The translations under genes were made by a program, and so were the position numbers. From Candidatus Heimdallarchaeota archaeon (lineage in GTDB: Archaea; Asgardarchaeota; Heimdallarchaeia; Heimdallarchaeales; Heimdallarchaeaceae), in the NCBI GenBank assembly GCA_016840095.1, contig JAEOSZ010000006.1, forward strand, positions 29,200 to 93,199: a DNA stretch of 64,000 bases, read 5' to 3'. The stretch's first letter is position 1; every line of letters begins with the position of its first letter. Below are positions 49,650-60,744 of this stretch, piece by piece. The notes under the pieces are model-generated. The model was not told the DNA's origin and did not search any database. It saw nothing but the letters and a program-made list of their open reading frames with translations.

Positions 49650-51461
49650 TTAATCATCATAAGGTGATTTTTTTATACGAATTTGAGCTAGGGAGATAAT
49701 TTGATTCGCTATTTCTTCATTAATTGAAAGTAGTTTCTTTACATCCCCAACATCTGCATTTGCTATTTTCTCAAGAGTTTTATATTCTCGAAGAAGCTTT
49801 TGAACTTTAACTTTGCCAACACCTCTTATCATTTCGAAAATTGAAGTTTGAGTTTTTTTTGCTCTTAGGTGCTTATGATAGTTAATAGCAAATCTATGTG
49901 ATTCATCTCTAACATTTTGCACTAATTTGAGAACAGATGAGCTTTGGTCGAGTTCAATTGGATCATCAGACCATTCTACAAAAATCTCTTCATTCTTCTT
50001 TGCAATACTGATGATTGGAATAGATAATTCAAGTTTTTGTAAAACTTTGATTGCGACATTAAGTTGTCCTTTCCCACCATCAATAATTAGTAAATCGGGC
50101 TGAGGATCGCTTCCTAATGTTTCAGAAGTATATCTCCTCCCTATCACTTCCTCCATCATAGCATAATCATTTGGGTCGGTATAAGTTTTCCTAATCTTGA
50201 ATCTTCTATATAGTTTCTTCTGTGGGAATCCATTCTCAAAAACCACACAAGAACCAACAGAATCTTCTCCCATAAGCGTTGAGATATCAAAACCATGAAT
50301 TATTTGGGGTATCTTATCTAGTTTAAGAACAGATTTCATATCTTCCAGAACTGTATCAAAAGCCTCTAAATGCTTCAAATCCCTCTTATACTTTTGAAAT
50401 TCATTGTGTGCATTTTTCTCTGCAATATCAATGAGTGATTTCGCGATTTTTGTTTTGAAGGTTCTAATGTTAATCTCTTCAGTTTCTTTGAATCTTTCAA
50501 CAAAATTTGGACCAACTAAAATACTAAATTTCGGTTTCCTTTCACCATAGACCAGTGTTACAATCTCACCAGTTGTTTGAAGTTGAATTTCTTCTTCTTT
50601 TGAAAATATCAAATTTGAGATGTTATTAACACGGTGATTTCTTATTTCTAATTTGCTTAATGCTAAATCACCTTCGAATTCATAATGTCCTAAAACATCT
50701 ATATTTCTTTGATTGGAATGTACATCATCCTTAATGTTCAAGATTGACCTAACTGCTTGAACTAAGTCTCTGAGAGTAGCAGCTTTTTCAAAATTCGATT
50801 CTTGAGATGCTGTCCACATCTCTTCCTCAATGTTATCCAATAAATCAGCCACATCTCCCTTTAGAAAAGAAATAACATTCTTCACTGTTTTTCCATATTC
50901 TTCTTTTGATATTTCATTTTTGTAAGGTGACAAACATCTACCTAACCTGTCTCGCATACACCGAGTGGTCGACCCTTTTTTTGTTAACTGTTTCATCTTT
51001 CTACCACAGTTGCATATTGGAAAGAGTCTTTCTACTAATTTTGCTGTTTGTTTTAGCATAGTATTGTTAGGGAAAGGCCCGAAGTAAACACTCTTTGGTA
51101 CTCTTTCATCAGTTTCACGTGCAAATGAGATTTGGGGATACTCTTCTTCCATAGTAATCCTGATGAGTAAATTGGACTTGTCATCCCTTGATCTACTATT
51201 TAACATCGGAGATAATTGCTTTATTAACTTCATTTCAAGAAGCAGTGCTTCAGGATCACTTCGAGTAATGACCCAATCTACACGGTTTGCTAATTCTTGA
51301 AGTTTATCCTCTTTTCTATCAACTGTTGTTTGAAAATGTTGTTTAACTCTGTTTCGAAGATTCTTAGCTTTTCCTACATAGATTACCTTCTCGTCTTTAT
51401 CTTTGATTAGATAAACCCCAGATTCGGTGGGGATTTCCTCAAGATCAGAAAAAAGACTCAT
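49650..51461 (-). CDS. uvrC: Excinuclease ABC subunit C
   Basis: GVY...IYVGKAKNLRNRV, FEKAA.LRD, GFDIS, IDGGKGQL, RDESHRFAI, HhH. Confidence 0.97.
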   Translation of the reverse strand: MSLFSDLEEIPTESGVYLIKDKDEKVIYVGKAKNLRNRVKQHFQTTVDRKEDKLQELANRVDWVITRSDPEALLLEMKLIKQLSPMLNSRSRDDKSNLLIRITMEEEYPQISFARETDERVPKSVYFGPFPNNTMLKQTAKLVERLFPICNCGRKMKQLTKKGSTTRCMRDRLGRCLSPYKNEISKEEYGKTVKNVISFLKGDVADLLDNIEEEMWTASQESNFEKAATLRDLVQAVRSILNIKDDVHSNQRNIDVLGHYEFEGDLALSKLEIRNHRVNNISNLIFSKEEEIQLQTTGEIVTLVYGERKPKFSILVGPNFVERFKETEEINIRTFKTKIAKSLIDIAEKNAHNEFQKYKRDLKHLEAFDTVLEDMKSVLKLDKIPQIIHGFDISTLMGEDSVGSCVVFENGFPQKKLYRRFKIRKTYTDPNDYAMMEEVIGRRYTSETLGSDPQPDLLIIDGGKGQLNVAIKVLQKLELSIPIISIAKKNEEIFVEWSDDPIELDQSSSVLKLVQNVRDESHRFAINYHKHLRAKKTQTSIFEMIRGVGKVKVQKLLREYKTLEKIANADVGDVKKLLSINEEIANQIISLAQIRIKKSPYDD

Positions 51462-53434
51462 CTAGTTTCCACCAGTTTCTCCAGTTCTTTGATTTTATCG
51501 CGATAAAGTGCAGCTTTTTCAAAATCTAAAGTACCTGCTGCTTCAGCCATTTTTTCTTTCAAGTCATCAATTACGTATAGAATATCTTGACTGGTTAGGT
51601 CATCAGGAACCTCTATCTTCTCATCTTCTTTGGGTTCAACTTGCATTAGTGTCTCAACTATTGACCTTACTTCTTTACGAATTGTTGTAGGCTCGATACC
51701 ATGTTTTTTATTGTATTCTTGCTGAATCCTTCTCCTTCTATTGTTCTCTGCTATTGCTTCTTTCATTGAATCTGTGAGATTATCAGCAAACAAAATTACA
51801 CTCCCATGAACATTTCTACTTGCACGACCCATTAGTTGGATTAAAGAGCCTTTTGATCTAAGAAAGCCTTCTTTGTCAGCATCTAGTATAGCAACTAAAG
51901 CTACTTCAGGAAGATCCAATCCTTCTCTTAAAAGATTGATACCTACAACTACGTCATATTTACCAAGTCTAAGGTCTCTTAATATTTCAATCCTATCTAA
52001 AGTATCCACTTCATGATGCAAATATACTGATTTAATTTTCATCTCCAGTAGATAGTCTGATAACATTTCCGCACTTTGTTTTGTAATGGTTGTAACCAAT
52101 ACTCTCTCTCCCTTACAAACTCTCTGATTTATCTCACTGACCAAATCAGTTATTTGTCCTTCTGTTCCCCTAACTTCTATTTTTGGATCAACAAGACCTG
52201 TTGGTCTAATAATCTGTTCTACCACCTGTTCAGAAACTTCGTATTCATAATTCCTAGGAGTAGCACTTGTAAAAACAACATTATGCATGTACTTCTCTGT
52301 TTCCTCAAATCGGAAAGGCCTGTTATCAAATGCAGAAGGTAACCTGAATCCATGTTCAATTAGATTCTTCTTTCTAGAATAGTCTCCAGCATACATCCCT
52401 CGAAGTTGAGGAATAGTTAGATGTGATTCATCGATAATCATCAAAAAATTTTCTGGAAAGTGATCTAACAAACTAAATGGCTTTTCACCAGGTTTTCTTC
52501 TATCGAAGTGACGGGAATAATTTTCTATCCCTGAGCAACCACCAGTTTCTCTCAAAAGCTCCAAATCATAGAGAGTTTTTTGCCTTAATCTGTGTCTCTC
52601 AACTACTTTGCCATCTTTTTCAAATTCAGCTAAACGCATATCTAACTCCAATTTTATATCTTCAAGAGCTGATTCAAAGAAAGCATCGTTTGCAAGATAT
52701 TGAGTTCCAGGATATATTGAAAGGTATTCATATTCTTTCATCATTTCTCCTGTTACAGAATGTCGAGAGGTTAAACGTTCTATCTCATCACCAAAGAATT
52801 CAATTCTATAAACATAATCACCATACAATGGAAAAATATCAATAGAATCACCTCTTACCCTGAAAGTTTTTCTTTCCAATGAAACATCATTTCTTTCGTA
52901 TTGGTTCTTAACTAACTCTAACATCAAATCCTGTCTATCTAAGGTGTCACCCACCTTCAGTGCTATTCTTCTAGAGCGATAAACATCGGGAGGACCTGTT
53001 CCATAGATACACGAAACAGTCGCACAGACAATAACATCTTCACGAGTAGCCAATGCTTCAAGTGCTGTATGACGTAGTCGTTCAATTTCCTTGTTGATAT
53101 CAACATCTTTCTCAATATAGAGATCCTTTGAAGGTAAATATGCTTCAGGTTGATAGTAGTCGTAGAACGAAACATAGTAACAAACAGCAGCTGAAGGAAA
53201 CAATGTTTTGAACTCACCAAATAGCTGTGCTACAAGTGTTTTATTAGGACCAATTACTAAAGATGGTTTCTTAATCTTGTCAATAACTGATGCCATTGTA
53301 AATGTTTTACCTGACCCAGTAACTCCCAGAAGTGTTTGATGTTGATAGTTCTTATTTATTCCTTCCACTAATTGAGATATTGCTTTTGGTTGGTCTCCTT
53401 TTGGAGTGAAAAGTGTTTCTATATCCAGTGGCAT
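51458..53434 (-). CDS. uvrB: Excinuclease ABC subunit B
   Basis: GVTGSGKTFT, YYDYYQPEAY-like, DESH, EQIIRPTGL, GINLLREGLD, FEKAA. Confidence 0.98.
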   Translation of the reverse strand: MPLDIETLFTPKGDQPKAISQLVEGINKNYQHQTLLGVTGSGKTFTMASVIDKIKKPSLVIGPNKTLVAQLFGEFKTLFPSAAVCYYVSFYDYYQPEAYLPSKDLYIEKDVDINKEIERLRHTALEALATREDVIVCATVSCIYGTGPPDVYRSRRIALKVGDTLDRQDLMLELVKNQYERNDVSLERKTFRVRGDSIDIFPLYGDYVYRIEFFGDEIERLTSRHSVTGEMMKEYEYLSIYPGTQYLANDAFFESALEDIKLELDMRLAEFEKDGKVVERHRLRQKTLYDLELLRETGGCSGIENYSRHFDRRKPGEKPFSLLDHFPENFLMIIDESHLTIPQLRGMYAGDYSRKKNLIEHGFRLPSAFDNRPFRFEETEKYMHNVVFTSATPRNYEYEVSEQVVEQIIRPTGLVDPKIEVRGTEGQITDLVSEINQRVCKGERVLVTTITKQSAEMLSDYLLEMKIKSVYLHHEVDTLDRIEILRDLRLGKYDVVVGINLLREGLDLPEVALVAILDADKEGFLRSKGSLIQLMGRASRNVHGSVILFADNLTDSMKEAIAENNRRRRIQQEYNKKHGIEPTTIRKEVRSIVETLMQVEPKEDEKIEVPDDLTSQDILYVIDDLKEKMAEAAGTLDFEKAALYRDKIKELEKLVETR

Positions 53435-53943: not shown

Positions 53944-54204
53944 ATGGTATCAACTATAAAAGCAAAACAACTCATTTTAGATGATTTAGATGTAAAACTA
54001 CCTCATCAAAAAAGAGCTCTTCTTTTATTGGAATCAGATATTTTGAGAGAAAGAATGAAAGGGTATGCTTTATTGACAACTTGTTATCATATGTGTTCTT
54101 CAGATATTCGTGAACATATTAGAAGGAAATGGAAAGGGGAAAAAGACCTAAAAGGAATAAAAAAAGCGTTCATCGATTACTGCAAAAAGATTTTTCATGG
54201 ATGA
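53944..54204 (+). CDS. Small hypothetical helical protein
   Basis: 86-aa ATG ORF preceded by CTTAAATA TATA-like element; convergent with the HEAT gene. Confidence 0.6.
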   Translation: MVSTIKAKQLILDDLDVKLPHQKRALLLLESDILRERMKGYALLTTCYHMCSSDIREHIRRKWKGEKDLKGIKKAFIDYCKKIFHG

Positions 54205-54206
54205 AC

Positions 54207-54983
54207 TTATTCTTTGATTTCTTCTTGTAATGGAAAATAAACAGGGAATATTAGGCGTGCGAAACTTTGATACATTTGAACACTATAATCCTTCTGTTCA
54301 ATTAATCCTTCAAGTTTAACTATCTCAGATTCTGTATAACCTTTCATATCCGGGAATTCATCACGGTCGCCATAGTCCATAACCTTGCAGATTATATCGC
54401 CTACTTGTTCCAATTCGAGGTATGATTCAATCAGAATGTGAACATGTGGAGTTAGTTTTTCTGATTGTTCTTCCTCTGCAATTGAATTAGCTATTCTTAC
54501 TACAGAAAGTATTGCTGCTCTTCTAGTAATATAATCTCTTGCATAAACTACATTCTTCAAAGGGTAAAGAACATCAACATCATCCAAATAACCAATTGCC
54601 CTTATTGCTGCATATTGTAGATCATAATCACTTTCTTCAAGTATTTTTACAAGATAAGGTTTAGATGCATAATCTTTCAAATGTCCTAAAACTTCCAATG
54701 TTGAAAGTTTAATTGCTAATGAACTCTTTTCTATAAGATCATGAAGATAATCTAAGATTTTTGTCTTAAGCTCTGGAAACTTTGAAGCAAATTCAACTAG
54801 TGTTGACGCTGCAGCATTTCTTACATTCCAATCAGAATCAACAATAAGTGGGAATATTTTATTGATACTTTTTGCTTTACCATTCTTCTGAATGAATAGA
54901 GCAAAATAAGCTCTATCTAAAGGATCCTCACTTTTTTGTTTTCCACCAATACGTAATTTTCTGAAGAAATTCACCAAACTCAT
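54207..54983 (-). CDS. HEAT-repeat (PBS-lyase-like) protein with amphipathic N-terminal helix
   Basis: DSDWNVRNAAASTL, SLAIKLSTLEVLG, DYDLQYAAIRAIG, DYITRRAAILSV. Confidence 0.88.
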   Translation of the reverse strand: MSLVNFFRKLRIGGKQKSEDPLDRAYFALFIQKNGKAKSINKIFPLIVDSDWNVRNAAASTLVEFASKFPELKTKILDYLHDLIEKSSLAIKLSTLEVLGHLKDYASKPYLVKILEESDYDLQYAAIRAIGYLDDVDVLYPLKNVVYARDYITRRAAILSVVRIANSIAEEEQSEKLTPHVHILIESYLELEQVGDIICKVMDYGDRDEFPDMKGYTESEIVKLEGLIEQKDYSVQMYQSFARLIFPVYFPLQEEIKE

Positions 54984-56554
54984 AATTCAAACAACCCCTC
55001 TTTTATGAGATAGCTTATGGCACCTCTTTGCGGCTGAGTTAGTTTTCTTAAGAAAGTATAATCTATCTTTCTAACTTCAAACCTTTCTTCTTTTTCTTCA
55101 TCTAAATCGAATTTGTAAGCATCTTTCCTCTTTGTAACTTGAACAGCTCTTGTAACGACGGGTAGGTTGTACGGTGATAATGATTTGTACTTTGCTTTAT
55201 GAACTGCAAACAGTGTTGCTACATGGATTCCGCCTATTTTCTTAAAGACTATAATGTCTGCAAAAGCTGGAAGGATTGTTTTGAAGTCATCTCTGTAGAG
55301 TGACATATGATTATGTAGAATAACTAGTTGATCAATTCCTACTCCGTAATCATTAGCCTCGAACACATAGACTTTCTTATCATCCACTTTTACGTAACCT
55401 TTAGAAGAAATTCTAGGTTTATCATCAAGTAATTGACCAAAAGTGGAATATTTCCTTCTGAAAACTTTACTTACATACTCTTCTATTTGTCTCCAACCAT
55501 ATGCATAGACAGACCAAATATCTGTCCATCTGCTTCTAGAAGAGTGCCAGTGTTCAACTACAAACTCTGAATGAGCATTTTTATTGACTGCTTGTAAATC
55601 TTTGATTTCATCCCAAGTAAATTCTTCAAGAAACTCCAAGTCAGACTTAAATGAGATAAGTTTTTGAAAAACAGTTTCCTCATCCTCATATTTAGTTACA
55701 AGCTTGTTCATAGCAGCAAGACTAAATTCTCCAATTGGAGGTGCAAGAAAAGCTTTCAATTCATTAGGATAAATAATAGATCTATCTTCATGTCTGGTTG
55801 GGAGTTTGTACTCTTCTTTCTCTAGCAAATAATCAATAGCTTTCTTCTGGATATAATGAGCAAAACCTTCATCTATAAGTTCGTGAAGATTTTTCTTTCT
55901 TGCTACTTTGGCCCTTTCATTTATCAGATTAATTGCTTCAATTGAGAAATTATTGAAAAGAGTGTATTTTCGAGCATCTTCTGGTGGAGTGTAAAAATCT
56001 TCAACTCCTGCTTCAGTGAATAATCTAATTACACCGATTAAATCTTGGAAATACTGCCAAGCCCAAACGTGTCTGTTCTGTGAAACTTGGTTTAATTGAA
56101 ACACATTATTTGTCATTAATTCTTTGAGAACCAGATCTAATTGGTATAATTGTGCCAATATTCTCGGTGAGTTCGATTCGGTTTTCTCGTTCATGTATGC
56201 ATGAGCAAAGGCATGAATGAGCATTACTCGCAATGTTAATTCTTGTTCCTTAGTAATTTCTCTTGGAGGGACGGAAAGATAAACCAGGGTTGGTAGGGAA
56301 TTATATACTGTCTCTTTCCCTGTAGGAAGGAAATCGCTAATTCTAGCAGATCGAAGGTTAGTAATTTGTTCAGAAGTTAGTATAGCTTGAGGTGTTCCAG
56401 TATCTTCTATTACTCTATTAATTGAGATATGCATTTCTGGATTAACAAAAATCAGAATCCTGTAATTTTCTGGAGTTTCTCCGACTAGAGTTTTAAAGTC
56501 CTCTCTAGCTTTGTTATAAACCTCTATTACATCACTTAGTTCTTCTTTAAGCAT
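54980..56554 (-). CDS. SpoVR/YcgB-like zincin-fold protein (divergent)
   Basis: ETVYNSLP...LRVMLIHAFAH and LIDEGFAHY, matching recalled SpoVR motifs ELVINSDP...AHVLAH and MNEGWASY. Confidence 0.62.
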   Translation of the reverse strand: MLKEELSDVIEVYNKAREDFKTLVGETPENYRILIFVNPEMHISINRVIEDTGTPQAILTSEQITNLRSARISDFLPTGKETVYNSLPTLVYLSVPPREITKEQELTLRVMLIHAFAHAYMNEKTESNSPRILAQLYQLDLVLKELMTNNVFQLNQVSQNRHVWAWQYFQDLIGVIRLFTEAGVEDFYTPPEDARKYTLFNNFSIEAINLINERAKVARKKNLHELIDEGFAHYIQKKAIDYLLEKEEYKLPTRHEDRSIIYPNELKAFLAPPIGEFSLAAMNKLVTKYEDEETVFQKLISFKSDLEFLEEFTWDEIKDLQAVNKNAHSEFVVEHWHSSRSRWTDIWSVYAYGWRQIEEYVSKVFRRKYSTFGQLLDDKPRISSKGYVKVDDKKVYVFEANDYGVGIDQLVILHNHMSLYRDDFKTILPAFADIIVFKKIGGIHVATLFAVHKAKYKSLSPYNLPVVTRAVQVTKRKDAYKFDLDEEKEERFEVRKIDYTFLRKLTQPQRGAISYLIKEGLFEL

Positions 56555-57932
56555 GAATTATACTCTCCCTTAATATTTGCTCACCCAAATTCTTGATTTG
56601 TGCGGGATCTATTAGAATTGGTTTTGTAATACCTTTCAACATTTGTTTTGTATGTATGTAGATTTCTTTATTTCGTAATGCCTCAGTACCCATCAAGAAG
56701 TATGAGATATTCCAATTTCTGGAACGATCACCTTTCAATGAACTAAAAATTGCGTTCAACTGCTGTAAACATTCCCTAGTATCGGCGTTTGTTTTTGTTT
56801 CAACTTCATCAAAGTATCGTTTAAGTTCCCTGCTTTTCTTATATTCGAAAGGATAGACAGGAACATTGGGCATTCCATCTGTTACAATGGTAAATTGTAC
56901 ATCTATGTCTTTGTCTGTGTGTTGCTTTTTAGCATGTTCTATAGCTGTGATTATACTCTGAACCATGTGTGTTTTTCCTCTTGCTTCAGCAGTAAGAAGA
57001 AGTTGTTCCATTTTTTTATCATCATCAACCACAAAAGGATTCTTAATAATCGGAACAACTGCAAGTTTAAACATATCAAAACGTTTTCTCTTTCTTCTAT
57101 TAATCATTTTAAAATAGTAATAGAGACTAAGACTTGTTAACAGAGCGCCATCCAATCTAGACATTTTTCCTTCAAAAACAGTTTTTTTCATGGATTGACT
57201 CATATCAACTATGAGATAAACCAAAGATCTACGATCCTTTTTTATTCTTACAATGTCTTCTTGTTTAACTTTCGAAGGAGGGACAGTCTGGGAACTTAGA
57301 ATTGCACTCTTATAGGTTTCTTTTAGGCGAATTGAACCTCGAGGTCTTTTTTGAACTTCATCAATGGGTGCAACAGAAATCTGTTTCATCAGATATCTGC
57401 CTAAAATCTTCCCTAGAAGATCCATTACACTTTCTCTAGATATTCTTTTCTTCCTACCAAATGCATCAGTTATTTCAATGTCAACAATTTCAGTTAATTG
57501 ATTTAGTTTCTCTGCTAATTGTTGGAGGTCTACAGTTGCTTCATGCTTAAGCTCTTTTAGAAGTTCCTGGATATACTTGAGAATTTCCTCAACAGTCTGT
57601 AATTCATTTCTGTTGACTCTCTCTAGTACATCAGGCAGAACTCTTTCTCCAATAAATCGGAGAAGCTTCATTTCATTTATTAGTCGATCCTCTTCTTCGG
57701 CTGTAAGAAAAGTATTCATAATTTTTTGAACGATATTGTCAATTGCAACAGCATTTTTAGCAGCGATAGATAAGACAGCACCTTCTCGAGAACTTCTACC
57801 AAGATGTGGATTCCTCCATAAACGTAGTACTTGTGCAGCATCTTCAAATTCTAAAACAAACTCTTGATTAGAATAATGCTGCAGAGGATCTGCAAATTCT
57901 GTTTCTGTTACGAAATATATTCGGTGGGGCAT
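56547..57932 (-). CDS. vWA-domain protein (YeaH/CoxE-like AAA+ partner)
   Basis: IRLKETYKSAI pre-vWA motif; MIDAS DMSQS...T...TDG intact; N-terminal helical/coiled-coil region. Confidence 0.85.
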   Translation of the reverse strand: MPHRIYFVTETEFADPLQHYSNQEFVLEFEDAAQVLRLWRNPHLGRSSREGAVLSIAAKNAVAIDNIVQKIMNTFLTAEEEDRLINEMKLLRFIGERVLPDVLERVNRNELQTVEEILKYIQELLKELKHEATVDLQQLAEKLNQLTEIVDIEITDAFGRKKRISRESVMDLLGKILGRYLMKQISVAPIDEVQKRPRGSIRLKETYKSAILSSQTVPPSKVKQEDIVRIKKDRRSLVYLIVDMSQSMKKTVFEGKMSRLDGALLTSLSLYYYFKMINRRKRKRFDMFKLAVVPIIKNPFVVDDDKKMEQLLLTAEARGKTHMVQSIITAIEHAKKQHTDKDIDVQFTIVTDGMPNVPVYPFEYKKSRELKRYFDEVETKTNADTRECLQQLNAIFSSLKGDRSRNWNISYFLMGTEALRNKEIYIHTKQMLKGITKPILIDPAQIKNLGEQILRESIIHA

Positions 57933-57970: not shown

Positions 57971-59521
57971 TTAAATATAATCTACTCTGAGTAACTGTTC
58001 ATATGATGGTTTTAGTTTTTCCACTACTTGGTTTCGAATGTTTTCTTTATATTTATCCAAGCCTTCAAATTTCACTACTAGTTCTGCTAATTCAGCATCA
58101 CTTAATGCTTTCATTTTAGATATGTCTTCAGATATATCTTGAACATTAATAGAAACGTCTGATTCTTTGATAGATGTTCGTAAAACAATCTTAATTTGTT
58201 GTAGCGCATCGTTAATCATAGAAACTGGAACATCATATGCATCCATTGTACTTCTTATTCTTTCCAATGTAATCACGTTGATATCCTTTGTTTCGTCTTC
58301 TCTTGCTTGAAGCAAAACTGTTTCTCCTATGATATTGTTCATAGTACGAAGATCAATATGGGGATTTCTCTGAGGATCATGAATTTCATCAAGACCAGAA
58401 TAAAAGTCACTTCTAGCCATTCTGCTTTCAGAACGAATACCTTTTCTTTTTAGATTCTCTGGAAGTGAATTATTTCCTAAGAATGCTAGAAAATCAACTG
58501 CTAATCTACTAACAAAATCAGTAGTTTCTTTTTCCAATTCATGAAGTTGAATAATTGAGGGATTAGCTGTAATTTTTCTTCTGGATAGAATGATTTGTTC
58601 CTCAAACATATCTTTGATGATTTGCTCTCTGCTTTCAACAGAACGAGCAGGCCATAGAACTTCAGGAATACGATTAATGATTGGCTGACTTTCTTCACCA
58701 AAAACTGTCAAAGGAGCATTTGAGGTGAAAAGAACAGCACCATCAATGTATACTGGTTCACCTTGAATATTATACTTAATACCCATAGGTTCTTCAAGAA
58801 AACCCATCAGGGATTCTAATAGGCTTAGTGGTAGTCTCTGTATTTCATTAACAACAATAAAACCATGAGATAGAACTCCTACTTTATGTGAAGTTGCAGC
58901 ATATGTGGTTGATGTATCTTTTCCGAATAGTTCTTCTAGATTTTCTACACCAGCAAGAAGCATGTATAAACTTTCAGGATCAGTTCTTGGATCTAGTTGA
59001 GCTCTTCTTACTATGGTTTTAGTGGCTCCAAGTTTGCCTAATCGATTGACTACTTCTTTTGGAGGAATTTCAAGAACACTATTGGTATTATCTAAATCAA
59101 CTTCATTTCCATCAGCAGCAAGAATTGTTTCAATGTTATTTCTACAATATGGACAGAGAGATTGCATTACACGAATTCCAGCAAAAGGATTCGCAGGGAA
59201 ATTGTTCATTACATCTATTATATATCCAGCATCCTCTAAGAATGGACATCCTTCAATATGATATTTAAAGTTGTTAATCTCCCTAACAACGTGATCTAAC
59301 AATATTCTAGCAAACAAAGATTTGGCTTCACCAGTTGGACCAGTAAGAAGAACTTTACCTCCTACTGCTAACTTATCCATTACTACGTTCTTACCAATTT
59401 CATTTCCTCTAACGCTGACATCTTTTGAGACTCTATCACGGAATTCAGGATTCATAAGGATAGACCGAACAGAAAATCCTACATAATTATCCTTCATTAA
59501 TTTCTGTATTGTGAGTGTCAT
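57971..59521 (-). CDS. AAA+ ATPase, PrkA/YeaG / Mg-chelatase-like clade
   Basis: Walker A GPTGEAKS, YHIEGCPFLED...SLCPYCR insert, Walker B FIVVNE, sensor-1 FTSN, NR arginine finger. Confidence 0.85.
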   Translation of the reverse strand: MTLTIQKLMKDNYVGFSVRSILMNPEFRDRVSKDVSVRGNEIGKNVVMDKLAVGGKVLLTGPTGEAKSLFARILLDHVVREINNFKYHIEGCPFLEDAGYIIDVMNNFPANPFAGIRVMQSLCPYCRNNIETILAADGNEVDLDNTNSVLEIPPKEVVNRLGKLGATKTIVRRAQLDPRTDPESLYMLLAGVENLEELFGKDTSTTYAATSHKVGVLSHGFIVVNEIQRLPLSLLESLMGFLEEPMGIKYNIQGEPVYIDGAVLFTSNAPLTVFGEESQPIINRIPEVLWPARSVESREQIIKDMFEEQIILSRRKITANPSIIQLHELEKETTDFVSRLAVDFLAFLGNNSLPENLKRKGIRSESRMARSDFYSGLDEIHDPQRNPHIDLRTMNNIIGETVLLQAREDETKDINVITLERIRSTMDAYDVPVSMINDALQQIKIVLRTSIKESDVSINVQDISEDISKMKALSDAELAELVVKFEGLDKYKENIRNQVVEKLKPSYEQLLRVDYI

Positions 59522-59538: not shown

Positions 59539-60141
59539 TTATATATTTTGATCATTTTCTTCTTCTGTAGCAAATTGAACTTGCACAGGTTTGATTTTTT
59601 CTAATAATTTTTCTTTTTCTTCCCAAGACTTTACATGTCCAATATGTATTACTCTCTTTAACCATTTGAGAGCTTCAAGTAAATTAGGTACTTCTGGTAC
59701 TTCAAAGAGGTTCCATAACCTATCAGTTAAGCGAATTAGAGATAGATTTTCAATTAATTCTCCACGAGATAAAGCTCCTTGGAGGTTTGAATTGTAAGCA
59801 CAGATAGCAATTGGAAGACTTTTTGTTTCTGAATCCCAAATTACCTTTTCCCAGAAATAGTTTCTTTCGTGCTTAATCATTTCCTCTTTGGTTGCGTCAA
59901 TTAGATATAACAGTCCTTCAAATGGAACAAATTGCTTATGCTTGAATTTGAACCCTAAAGAATATGGTAATTCAGTGAGTGAACTATCCAATATAAATTC
60001 TGAGAGAGATGTACTTGATCTCATCAACAAGATTCTATTTCTAGTAGCAGGGATATTATCACCTAAAACTAAAATAGATACCTCTGGGTAACCTAGTCTT
60101 CTTTTAAGGGATTTTTTCCAATTCTGAACAAAGCTAGTCAT
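59539..60141 (-). CDS. Degenerate Arf/Arl-family small GTPase (pseudo-GTPase)
   Basis: Amphipathic N-helix, ILVLG, GLLYLIDAT, LPIAIC, LQGALS..EL...LSL..L.DR.W, LLEALKWL match the Arf scaffold; G1, G3 and G4 motifs lost. Confidence 0.75.
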   Translation of the reverse strand: MTSFVQNWKKSLKRRLGYPEVSILVLGDNIPATRNRILLMRSSTSLSEFILDSSLTELPYSLGFKFKHKQFVPFEGLLYLIDATKEEMIKHERNYFWEKVIWDSETKSLPIAICAYNSNLQGALSRGELIENLSLIRLTDRLWNLFEVPEVPNLLEALKWLKRVIHIGHVKSWEEKEKLLEKIKPVQVQFATEEENDQNI

Positions 60142-60249
60142 TGGGTTTCGCTAAAGAGCATCATATGTGCATCTTTATCAATTTTGCGAATAAGAAGTTA
60201 TTACTAGTATAGAGGAAAAGTTTAGAATATCAGCAAAAATGAGAAACTA

Positions 60250-60744
60250 ATGAGTCAAAACATCCTTAACATAGTTGTTGCTGGTATTGAATACAAAAAT
60301 AAATGGTTGTTCATCAACCGTAAAAGAGGGGACTATCAGGAAAAATGGGCCCTTGTTGGAGGAAAGATGCAGTTTGATGAAACAATTAAAGAATCAATTT
60401 TGAGAGAGATAAAAGAAGAAACCGGTCTTGAAGTAGAATGGGTTGGTGTTAAGTCTATATTGAATGAGAAGCTCTTAGAAAAGGATACTAAAGAAACTAA
60501 GCAACAATTCATTATTATATTGTGTTCTGTTAAAGCAAGTAGTGATGTAGTTCAAGAGACAGACGAAGGAGAACTTTGTTGGTTCACTGATCAAGATATA
60601 CTGGAAAATAAAGAAAATATTATTCCATCAGACTTTTACATGATTACAGAACTAATTCCAAATGAATCTTTGCAACAAATTGTTGAGGTTGAATTGTTGG
60701 AGAAGAAAGATGAATTATATCTAGGTTTATTGAAGGAGTATTAA
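60250..60744 (+). CDS. NUDIX hydrolase
   Basis: GGKMQFDETIKESILREIKEETGL Nudix box. Confidence 0.93.
   Translation: MSQNILNIVVAGIEYKNKWLFINRKRGDYQEKWALVGGKMQFDETIKESILREIKEETGLEVEWVGVKSILNEKLLEKDTKETKQQFIIILCSVKASSDVVQETDEGELCWFTDQDILENKENIIPSDFYMITELIPNESLQQIVEVELLEKKDELYLGLLKEY

Follow-up and report, generated by a model that had tools for sequence, protein, structure and literature searches.

A predicted Arf-derived pseudoGTPase encoded at the head of a conserved AAA+/VWA gene cluster in Heimdallarchaeia

The window analysed here, a stretch of 64,000 nucleotides from a Candidatus Heimdallarchaeota archaeon, carries on its reverse strand five co-oriented genes, the first of which (59539..60141, stop codon included) has an ATG start and encodes a 200-residue protein that is derived from the Arf GTPases and lacks G1, G3, G4 and G5. 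We call this protein psArf because the name 'ArfL' was already taken; in the ArfR paper, it denotes a different prokaryotic GTPase group. A sequence-only reading of the same DNA had placed the gene at the head of an operon, and the gene map agrees: the AAA+ gene starts 17 bp downstream of psArf, and the junctions that follow are a gap of 38 bp and overlaps of 8 bp and 4 bp. The partners, all on the reverse strand, are a MoxR/ChlI-like AAA+ ATPase of 516 residues (57971..59521), a VWA-like protein of 461 residues (56547..57932), a protein of 524 residues that served as the marker of the module (54980..56554), and, as the last gene of the cluster, a HEAT-repeat protein of 258 residues (54207..54983). 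A 108-bp intergenic region (60142..60249), presumably containing the promoter, is shared by psArf and a divergent NUDIX hydrolase gene (60250-60744, forward strand). This neighbor is kept in most of the close loci (L001, L004, L012, and L013), and an ABC transporter takes its place in L006. At the other end of the cluster, an 86-residue ORF on the forward strand (53944-54204), with no Pfam match on record, is convergent with the terminal part of the HEAT gene. In L004/L005, L012, L013, and the P0002 contig, this place is likewise taken by a small gene for 86 to 89 residues on the opposite strand. The genes for UvrB and UvrC (49650-53434, reverse strand) lie directly downstream of the cluster here and likewise in L004, L006, L012, and L013, an adjacency that looks like conserved synteny without an evident functional link.

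The AAA+ and VWA partners look functional, judging from their sequences, because Walker A and the MIDAS are kept. In the AAA+ protein, whose language-model neighbors are archaeal AAA_5, Mg_chelatase, and Sigma54 clusters (score 0.97), the Walker A motif GPTGEAK[ST] is invariant, as is the Walker B motif VVNEIQRL, in which Asn-Glu replaces Asp-Glu. Between the two motifs lies a cysteine-rich insert, possibly a zinc site, in which C92, C123, and C126 are invariant and H88 almost so. In the VWA-like protein, the motifs D-x-S-Q-S-M and [TS]DG of the MIDAS were present in all 12 loci inspected, which represent three subfamilies. The Pfam scores for VWA_2 (E 0.071) and AAA_5 in the cluster fall under their cut-offs; the HEAT protein matches HEAT_2 at E 1.7e-15. 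No family was found for the 524-residue protein in Pfam, NCBIfam, the PDB, or the Atlas. Its HAFAH...DEGFA pair resembles a zincin site that lacks the catalytic Glu; in the f4 subfamily, the second His of HAFAH is changed to Lys or Arg and DEG to NG or QG, so that the metal site is not universally kept. The three large partners gave nothing significant in PDB sequence and profile searches, and NCBIfam was also empty. The families PF08298 (AAA_PrkA), PF04285 (DUF444), and PF04293 (SpoVR) had no match on the operon contig (C14) at E values up to 10, under which controls matched, and were absent likewise from the Pfam and NCBIfam scans of the partners, with very remote homology still possible.

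The reading frame of psArf is intact, and the Arf-like character of its C-terminal half, which the sequence-only reading had recognized by eye, was recovered by profile comparisons. Residues 71 to 163 match Pfam Arf (PF00025) with 26.2 bits against a curated cut-off of 22.3, and no GTPase family other than Arf appeared in the Pfam scan of psArf even at E values up to 1. A profile of 21 psArf orthologues matched solved chains of Arl3, HodArfR1, Arf6, Arl1, and Arl8 at E 4e-9 to 1e-6, always via the C-terminal half of psArf. When a profile built from 26 module-linked relatives was compared with canonical Arf by hhalign, the two aligned over 172 columns, from alphaN to alpha5, with a probability of 98.3% and an E value of 2.6e-14. 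In its own genome, the psArf HMM matches, among some 42 small-GTPase matches, exactly eight paralogues of the ArfR type. psArf thus traces back to an ArfR-type Arf GTPase of Asgard archaea. Of the eight paralogues, all canonical, four (G000 contigs C90, C62, C23, and C165) are 302 to 336 residues long and have extensions of about 130 to 150 residues beyond the G domain.

The same alignments locate the changes at the nucleotide-binding sites. The canonical P-loop GLDAAGKT aligns with residues G27-D-N-I-P-A-T-R34 of psArf (GDNIPATR, 60040..60063). Its Lys and its Mg-binding Thr have both been lost: the positions that bind phosphate and Mg have neither Lys nor Ser/Thr. All members of the window's own subfamily share G27, R34, N35, and R36. 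The canonical segment WDVGGQDKIRPLWRHY, which bears G3, switch II, and alpha2, falls on a 14-column gap. In the place of beta3, switch II, and alpha2, psArf has a non-regular segment (residues 57-75, 59917..59973) that is about 14 residues shorter than in Arf and contains L58, P59, F66, F71, F74, and E75 as invariant residues of its own subfamily. The G4 motif ANKQD aligns with A115-Y-N-S-N119 (AYNSN, 59785..59799), which reads YN[ST][ND] in the orthologues, and TCAT of G5 aligns with EVPE, so G5 is lost. A regular-expression search found no G1, G3, or G4 motif in psArf. Hence the altered P-loop, the switch II deletion, and the replacement of NKxD by YNSN are all real, as is the loss of all nucleotide-binding motifs that had been claimed from them. 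In the eight ArfR-type paralogues of the same genome, G1 (for example GLDAAGKT), G3 (for example DVAGQ), and G4 (for example NKQD) are all intact, so the degeneration is specific to psArf and is no assembly problem. Because the P-loop Lys and Thr, switch II, NKxD, and G5 are all gone, psArf is predicted to have lost nucleotide binding and to be a class I pseudoGTPase.

Two motifs distinguish the family from its canonical relatives. FWEKVIW on alpha3 (residues 96-102, 59836..59856) is specific to the family: across the three module-linked subfamilies described below, W97 never varies and E98 and W102 hardly do, and canonical Arfs are without FWExxIW. The most conserved motif of the family, SLIRLTDRLW in the alpha4-beta6 region (residues 134-143, 59713..59742), is an altered form of the Arf signature LxLxxLxxRxW, and its TDR ahead of beta6 is not found in canonical Arfs.

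Structure prediction followed by Foldseek, the check that the sequence-only reading had suggested, returned a predicted Arf-type G-domain fold. Given an 82-row alignment in which orthologues were joined by distant degenerate relatives and by canonical Arfs, AlphaFold2 gave a model with pLDDT 86.8 and pTM 0.81. With the 21 close orthologues alone, the pLDDT was 45, and the confident model therefore depends on the canonical Arfs in the alignment; the evidence from sequence comparison is independent of both models. Helices and strands in the pLDDT-45 model lie at nearly the same positions as in the confident one. The elements of the latter are alphaN (2-16), beta1 (21-28), alpha1 (31-42), one strand (49-56), the non-regular segment (57-75), beta4 (76-82), alpha3 (86-101), beta5 (111-116), alpha4 (126-132), beta6 (143-147), alpha5 (151-168), and an extra helix (173-182). 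Compared with Arf, the model is missing alpha2 and one interswitch strand, which leaves a single strand between alpha1 and beta4; segment 57-75 is non-regular yet confidently modelled. Foldseek against the PDB retrieved Arf-family chains only, with HodArfR1-GDP (8oul_A) as the best match (E 4e-9, TM 0.62/0.67). In a Foldseek-independent VIA search, Arf, Arl, Sar, and Arl15 scored Z 15.5 to 17.4 and all other GTPases at most 13.9, and the ESM Atlas neighbors of psArf were all Arf clusters. The model thus predicts a small-GTPase G-domain that is closest to Arf/Arl/Sar.

The claim that a membrane helix had been kept held, in the sense of an amphipathic segment, for the window's subfamily and did not extend to the others. 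Model secondary structure and hydrophobic moment place a basic amphipathic helix at residues 2 to 16 (60094..60138), which are helical in the model with a pLDDT of 64 to 70. Over 11 residues, the window's helix has a hydrophobic moment (muH) of 0.74, reached by 3% of shuffled sequences, and a net charge of +4. The helices of congeners have moments of up to 0.98 and net charges of +2 to +5, and most same-genus sequences exceed at least 95% of their shuffles. The amphipathic segment is confined to the window's subfamily: the f7 type has none, and that of the f4 type is weak and uncharged. In Heimdallarchaeaceae, the basic helix may anchor a complex at the membrane.

We found 43 close psArf homologues of 52 to 94% identity, all 43 of which have degenerate motifs; the two distant module-linked subfamilies likewise are without intact G1-G4. 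The named homologues are labelled Candidatus Heimdallarchaeaceae or Heimdallarchaeota, with one exception labelled Thorarchaeota. Among species-representative genomes, psArf is single-copy in 29 of the 30 genomes of the window's family. Between six orthologues (Nei-Gojobori), pS was 0.61 to 0.81 and thus saturated, pN was 0.14 to 0.34, and pN/pS was 0.20 to 0.46; dN/dS was at most 0.21 wherever dS was computable. psArf evolves at about the rate of the HEAT gene, roughly double that of the AAA+ and VWA genes. It is clearly held by strong purifying selection. The earlier proposal of a selected pseudo-GTPase, and no decaying pseudogene, is upheld by these values, with the absence of nucleotide binding predicted from the sequence.

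Searches of 1.84 billion representative proteins and of genomes yielded further degenerate Arf-like proteins at 20 to 31% identity; a profile search seeded with an alignment containing canonical Arfs was swamped by eukaryotic Arfs. The module-linked psArfs fall into three types, all of which are without G1, G3, and G4. The window's type has the RRKLGYPE helix and GDNxPATRNR. The f7 type starts with MFKRxKPPKHILFIGEKxETRD, has no N-terminal helix, and reads ASYNAxK at the G4 site, and the f4 type has FHYLRVG[KN][TA] and reads IIPxxS at the G4 site. The P-loop remnant of the f4 type varies among GKT, GNT, GKA, and GKP, a drift that fits a P-loop fossil free of the phosphate-binding constraint. 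As the motifs are degenerate in each of three diverged subfamilies, their loss is old. L24, W97, L124, E131, L135, R137, D140, and W160 are invariant in all three types, and G27, G76, E98, W102, P110, E128, S134, T139, R141, and K176 nearly so. Almost all of these residues lie in the C-terminal half, and the N-terminal half, which in real Arfs bears the effector-binding switch surface, is variable. G-domain topology would place a conserved interaction surface of psArf on the alpha3/alpha4/beta6 side. No longer forms in which psArf is fused to a partner were found, which is weak evidence. One of the distant degenerate Arf-like proteins (P0046, L008:4348-8612; 30% identity, with a basic N-terminal helix) is encoded directly downstream of a 1187-residue WD40-repeat protein, possibly a different partnership, between a dead Arf and a beta-propeller.

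The association of psArf with the other four genes is conserved. The five-gene order is identical in seven metagenomic or genomic loci, every close locus fetched, and recurs in f7 and f4/g8-g11 genomes, where psArf is 20 to 28% identical to that of the window. The psArf, AAA+, VWA, and 524-residue genes were present in 31 of 31 loci examined from the three subfamilies, with a HEAT match in all except three. Of 400 Asgard genomes, 54 carry the marker, every one of them in the class Heimdallarchaeia; none of the 317 Asgard genomes outside this class does. By family, psArf and the marker were found in 29/30 and 29/30 genomes of f1, 1/1 and 1/1 of f2, 11/12 and 10/12 of f4, and 11/12 and 10/12 of f7; in f3, the marker was present in 3/3 genomes and psArf in 0/3 at E 1e-10, with one match at E 2.8e-13 when a broader profile was used. 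Families f5 (psArf 1/22, weak; marker 0/22) and f6 (psArf 1/2, weak; marker 0/2) each gave a lone weak match to the psArf profile that may be a canonical Arf. psArf and the marker are thus co-present in five families. The linkage is looser in some genomes: in G034 (f3), a psArf-like gene lies about 5 kb from the module on the opposite strand; in genus g13, psArf is divergent from the module or on a separate contig; and in G001, it is on a separate contig. More distant degenerate Arf-like proteins occur in unrelated gene contexts.

A mirror-tree comparison of distance matrices from 27 loci showed no clear partner of psArf among the module proteins, with partial correlations of 0.51/0.38 for HEAT, 0.00/0.60 for AAA+, and 0.35/0.21 for the 524-residue protein. 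When a three-chain complex of AAA+, HEAT, and psArf was predicted, a control in which the AAA+ chain was replaced scored as high as the real complex, so that the comparison weighs neither for nor against binding of psArf to any chain.

The nearest described relatives of psArf are the Asgard ArfR/AArf GTPases, represented by the structures of HodArfR1 (8ouk/8oul) and GerdArfR1 (8oum/8oun) (bioRxiv 10.1101/2024.02.28.582541; PMC11914678). psArf shares with them, and with Arf, Arl, and Sar1, the fold, a collinear sequence, and, in the window's subfamily, the N-terminal helix. In contrast to ArfR/AArf, it is without G1, G3, G4, and G5 and has no switch II, no alpha2, and one interswitch strand fewer, while it has its own FWExxIW motif, an extra C-terminal helix, and an operon tie to AAA+ and VWA proteins. 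The published AArfs have well-conserved G boxes and bind membranes in a GTP-dependent manner (PMC11914678). A term search of the Asgard Arf papers (10.1101/2024.02.28.582541; PMC11914678) found no mention of degenerate members, operons, or gene neighborhoods; one of the two papers sets long-branch sequences aside as 'divergent'. Nor was any paper on psArf or its module found in full-text searches on pseudoGTPases and on MoxR, VWA, or HEAT proteins of Asgard archaea and Heimdallarchaeia.

Among pseudoGTPases, class I is a category of the Stiegler and Boggon scheme, which is quoted in PMC12722892, where RHOBTB1/2 are cited as members. psArf would belong there by a G-domain fold with its motifs lost, as seen from model and sequence, together with conservation under selection. 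RHOBTB1/2 and AAGAB likewise retain a G-domain fold, which serves protein interaction and binds no nucleotide; for psArf, both properties are predictions. The N-terminal pseudoGTPase domain of AAGAB binds its partner away from the switch and conventional GTPase interaction regions (PMC12490416), and the conservation pattern of psArf suggests, by analogy, a non-switch binding surface as well. Unlike AAGAB and RHOBTB, psArf is archaeal and Arf-derived and has no sequence relation to them beyond the superfamily. The module in turn probably resembles NorQ-NorD (PMC9976466 and PMC13036017) in setting a putative AAA_5/Mg-chelatase-type AAA+ protein beside a VWA-like protein with an intact MIDAS; it differs in the Asn-Glu of its Walker B motif and in its three extra conserved genes. 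No Arf-like protein is included in NorQ-NorD or the other MoxR-VWA pairs, in the descriptions available. We class psArf as a pseudoGTPase of class I type that derives from Arf and is attached to a system resembling MoxR-VWA.

We hypothesize, and consider it probable, that psArf, a pseudoGTPase descended from ArfR, works without nucleotide as a constitutive adaptor or regulator subunit of a machine made of the AAA+, VWA, 524-residue, and HEAT proteins. An ArfR-type Arf has lost the P-loop Lys and Thr, switch II, NKxD, and G5 while retaining the G-domain scaffold, and selection has kept it, single-copy in each genome, within a module restricted to Heimdallarchaeia. There it would act with no switch, as a fixed protein-binding subunit of an ATP-driven remodelling machine, and it would bind through a patch of the C-terminal lobe formed by alpha3, alpha4, and beta6 (FWExxIW, SLIRLTDRxW), away from the lost switch surface. 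In Heimdallarchaeaceae, the added basic amphipathic helix may hold the complex at the membrane. There is a slim chance that the arrangement is more specific, namely a frozen Arf-effector pair in which the psArf G-domain is permanently engaged with the HEAT solenoid encoded in the same operon and the AAA+/VWA motor assembles or recycles the complex.

The same gene linkage could be read in other ways. Rather than a stable subunit, psArf could be a client, a removable inhibitor, or an assembly factor on which the AAA+/VWA machine acts; MoxR-VWA pairs do remodel specific targets, as described for NorQ-NorD (PMC9976466, PMC13036017), and psArf evolves faster than the motor and is more loosely linked to the module than the other four genes are. 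That it is single-copy and comes first in the operon, however, fits this reading and the adaptor reading equally, and we regard the client role as unlikely. Looser linkage, together with the distant degenerate relatives in other gene contexts and the genomes in which psArf is unlinked from the module, would also suit a protein that works apart from its neighbors, for example as a membrane-binding protein, with the linkage no more than inherited gene order. This we think quite improbable, as the gene order is kept across subfamilies in which psArf is only 20 to 28% identical, and psArf and the marker occur together in five families, with the marker absent elsewhere.

Two further explanations concern the degenerate sites themselves. 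The invariance of G27, R34, N35, and R36 in the window's subfamily would be explained if psArf still bound a nucleotide (GTP, ATP, or another) in a non-canonical way, for example via R34-N35-R36, and served the AAA+ machine as an unusual switch or a sensor; ARLs with odd nucleotide behavior are known (PMC12722892). However, the other two module-linked subfamilies keep neither the RNR motif nor the loop length, there is no conserved P-loop Lys, switch II is deleted, and both G4 and G5 are lost, which makes such binding doubtful. The loss of all catalytic motifs could also point to a decaying pseudogene or an assembly artefact. We rejected the pseudogene in view of the strong purifying selection and the intact frames: the frame is intact in 55 of 55 genomes with a match, stops appear in four of the 55 matches, and the two inspected are natural terminators read through by tblastn. 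The same degenerate sequence in independent assemblies speaks against an artefact, and the chance of either is close to nil. The adaptor or regulator role therefore remains our preferred reading.

In eukaryotes, membrane budding is started by Arf GTPases; Heimdallarchaeia are the archaeal class nearest to eukaryotes. The Asgard relatives of Arf were characterized only in 2024-2025, as working switches; Heimdallarchaeia also hold an Arf derivative that is old, selected, and switch-less. To our knowledge, pseudo-GTPases are poorly understood, those of eukaryotes included, and the psArf cluster offers a defined set of five proteins that bears on what an Arf scaffold does without GTP and on the role of the class-specific AAA+/VWA/HEAT system. 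If true, the frozen Arf-HEAT pair would mean that the way in which eukaryotic coats and adaptors recognize Arf through a solenoid has an archaeal precedent.
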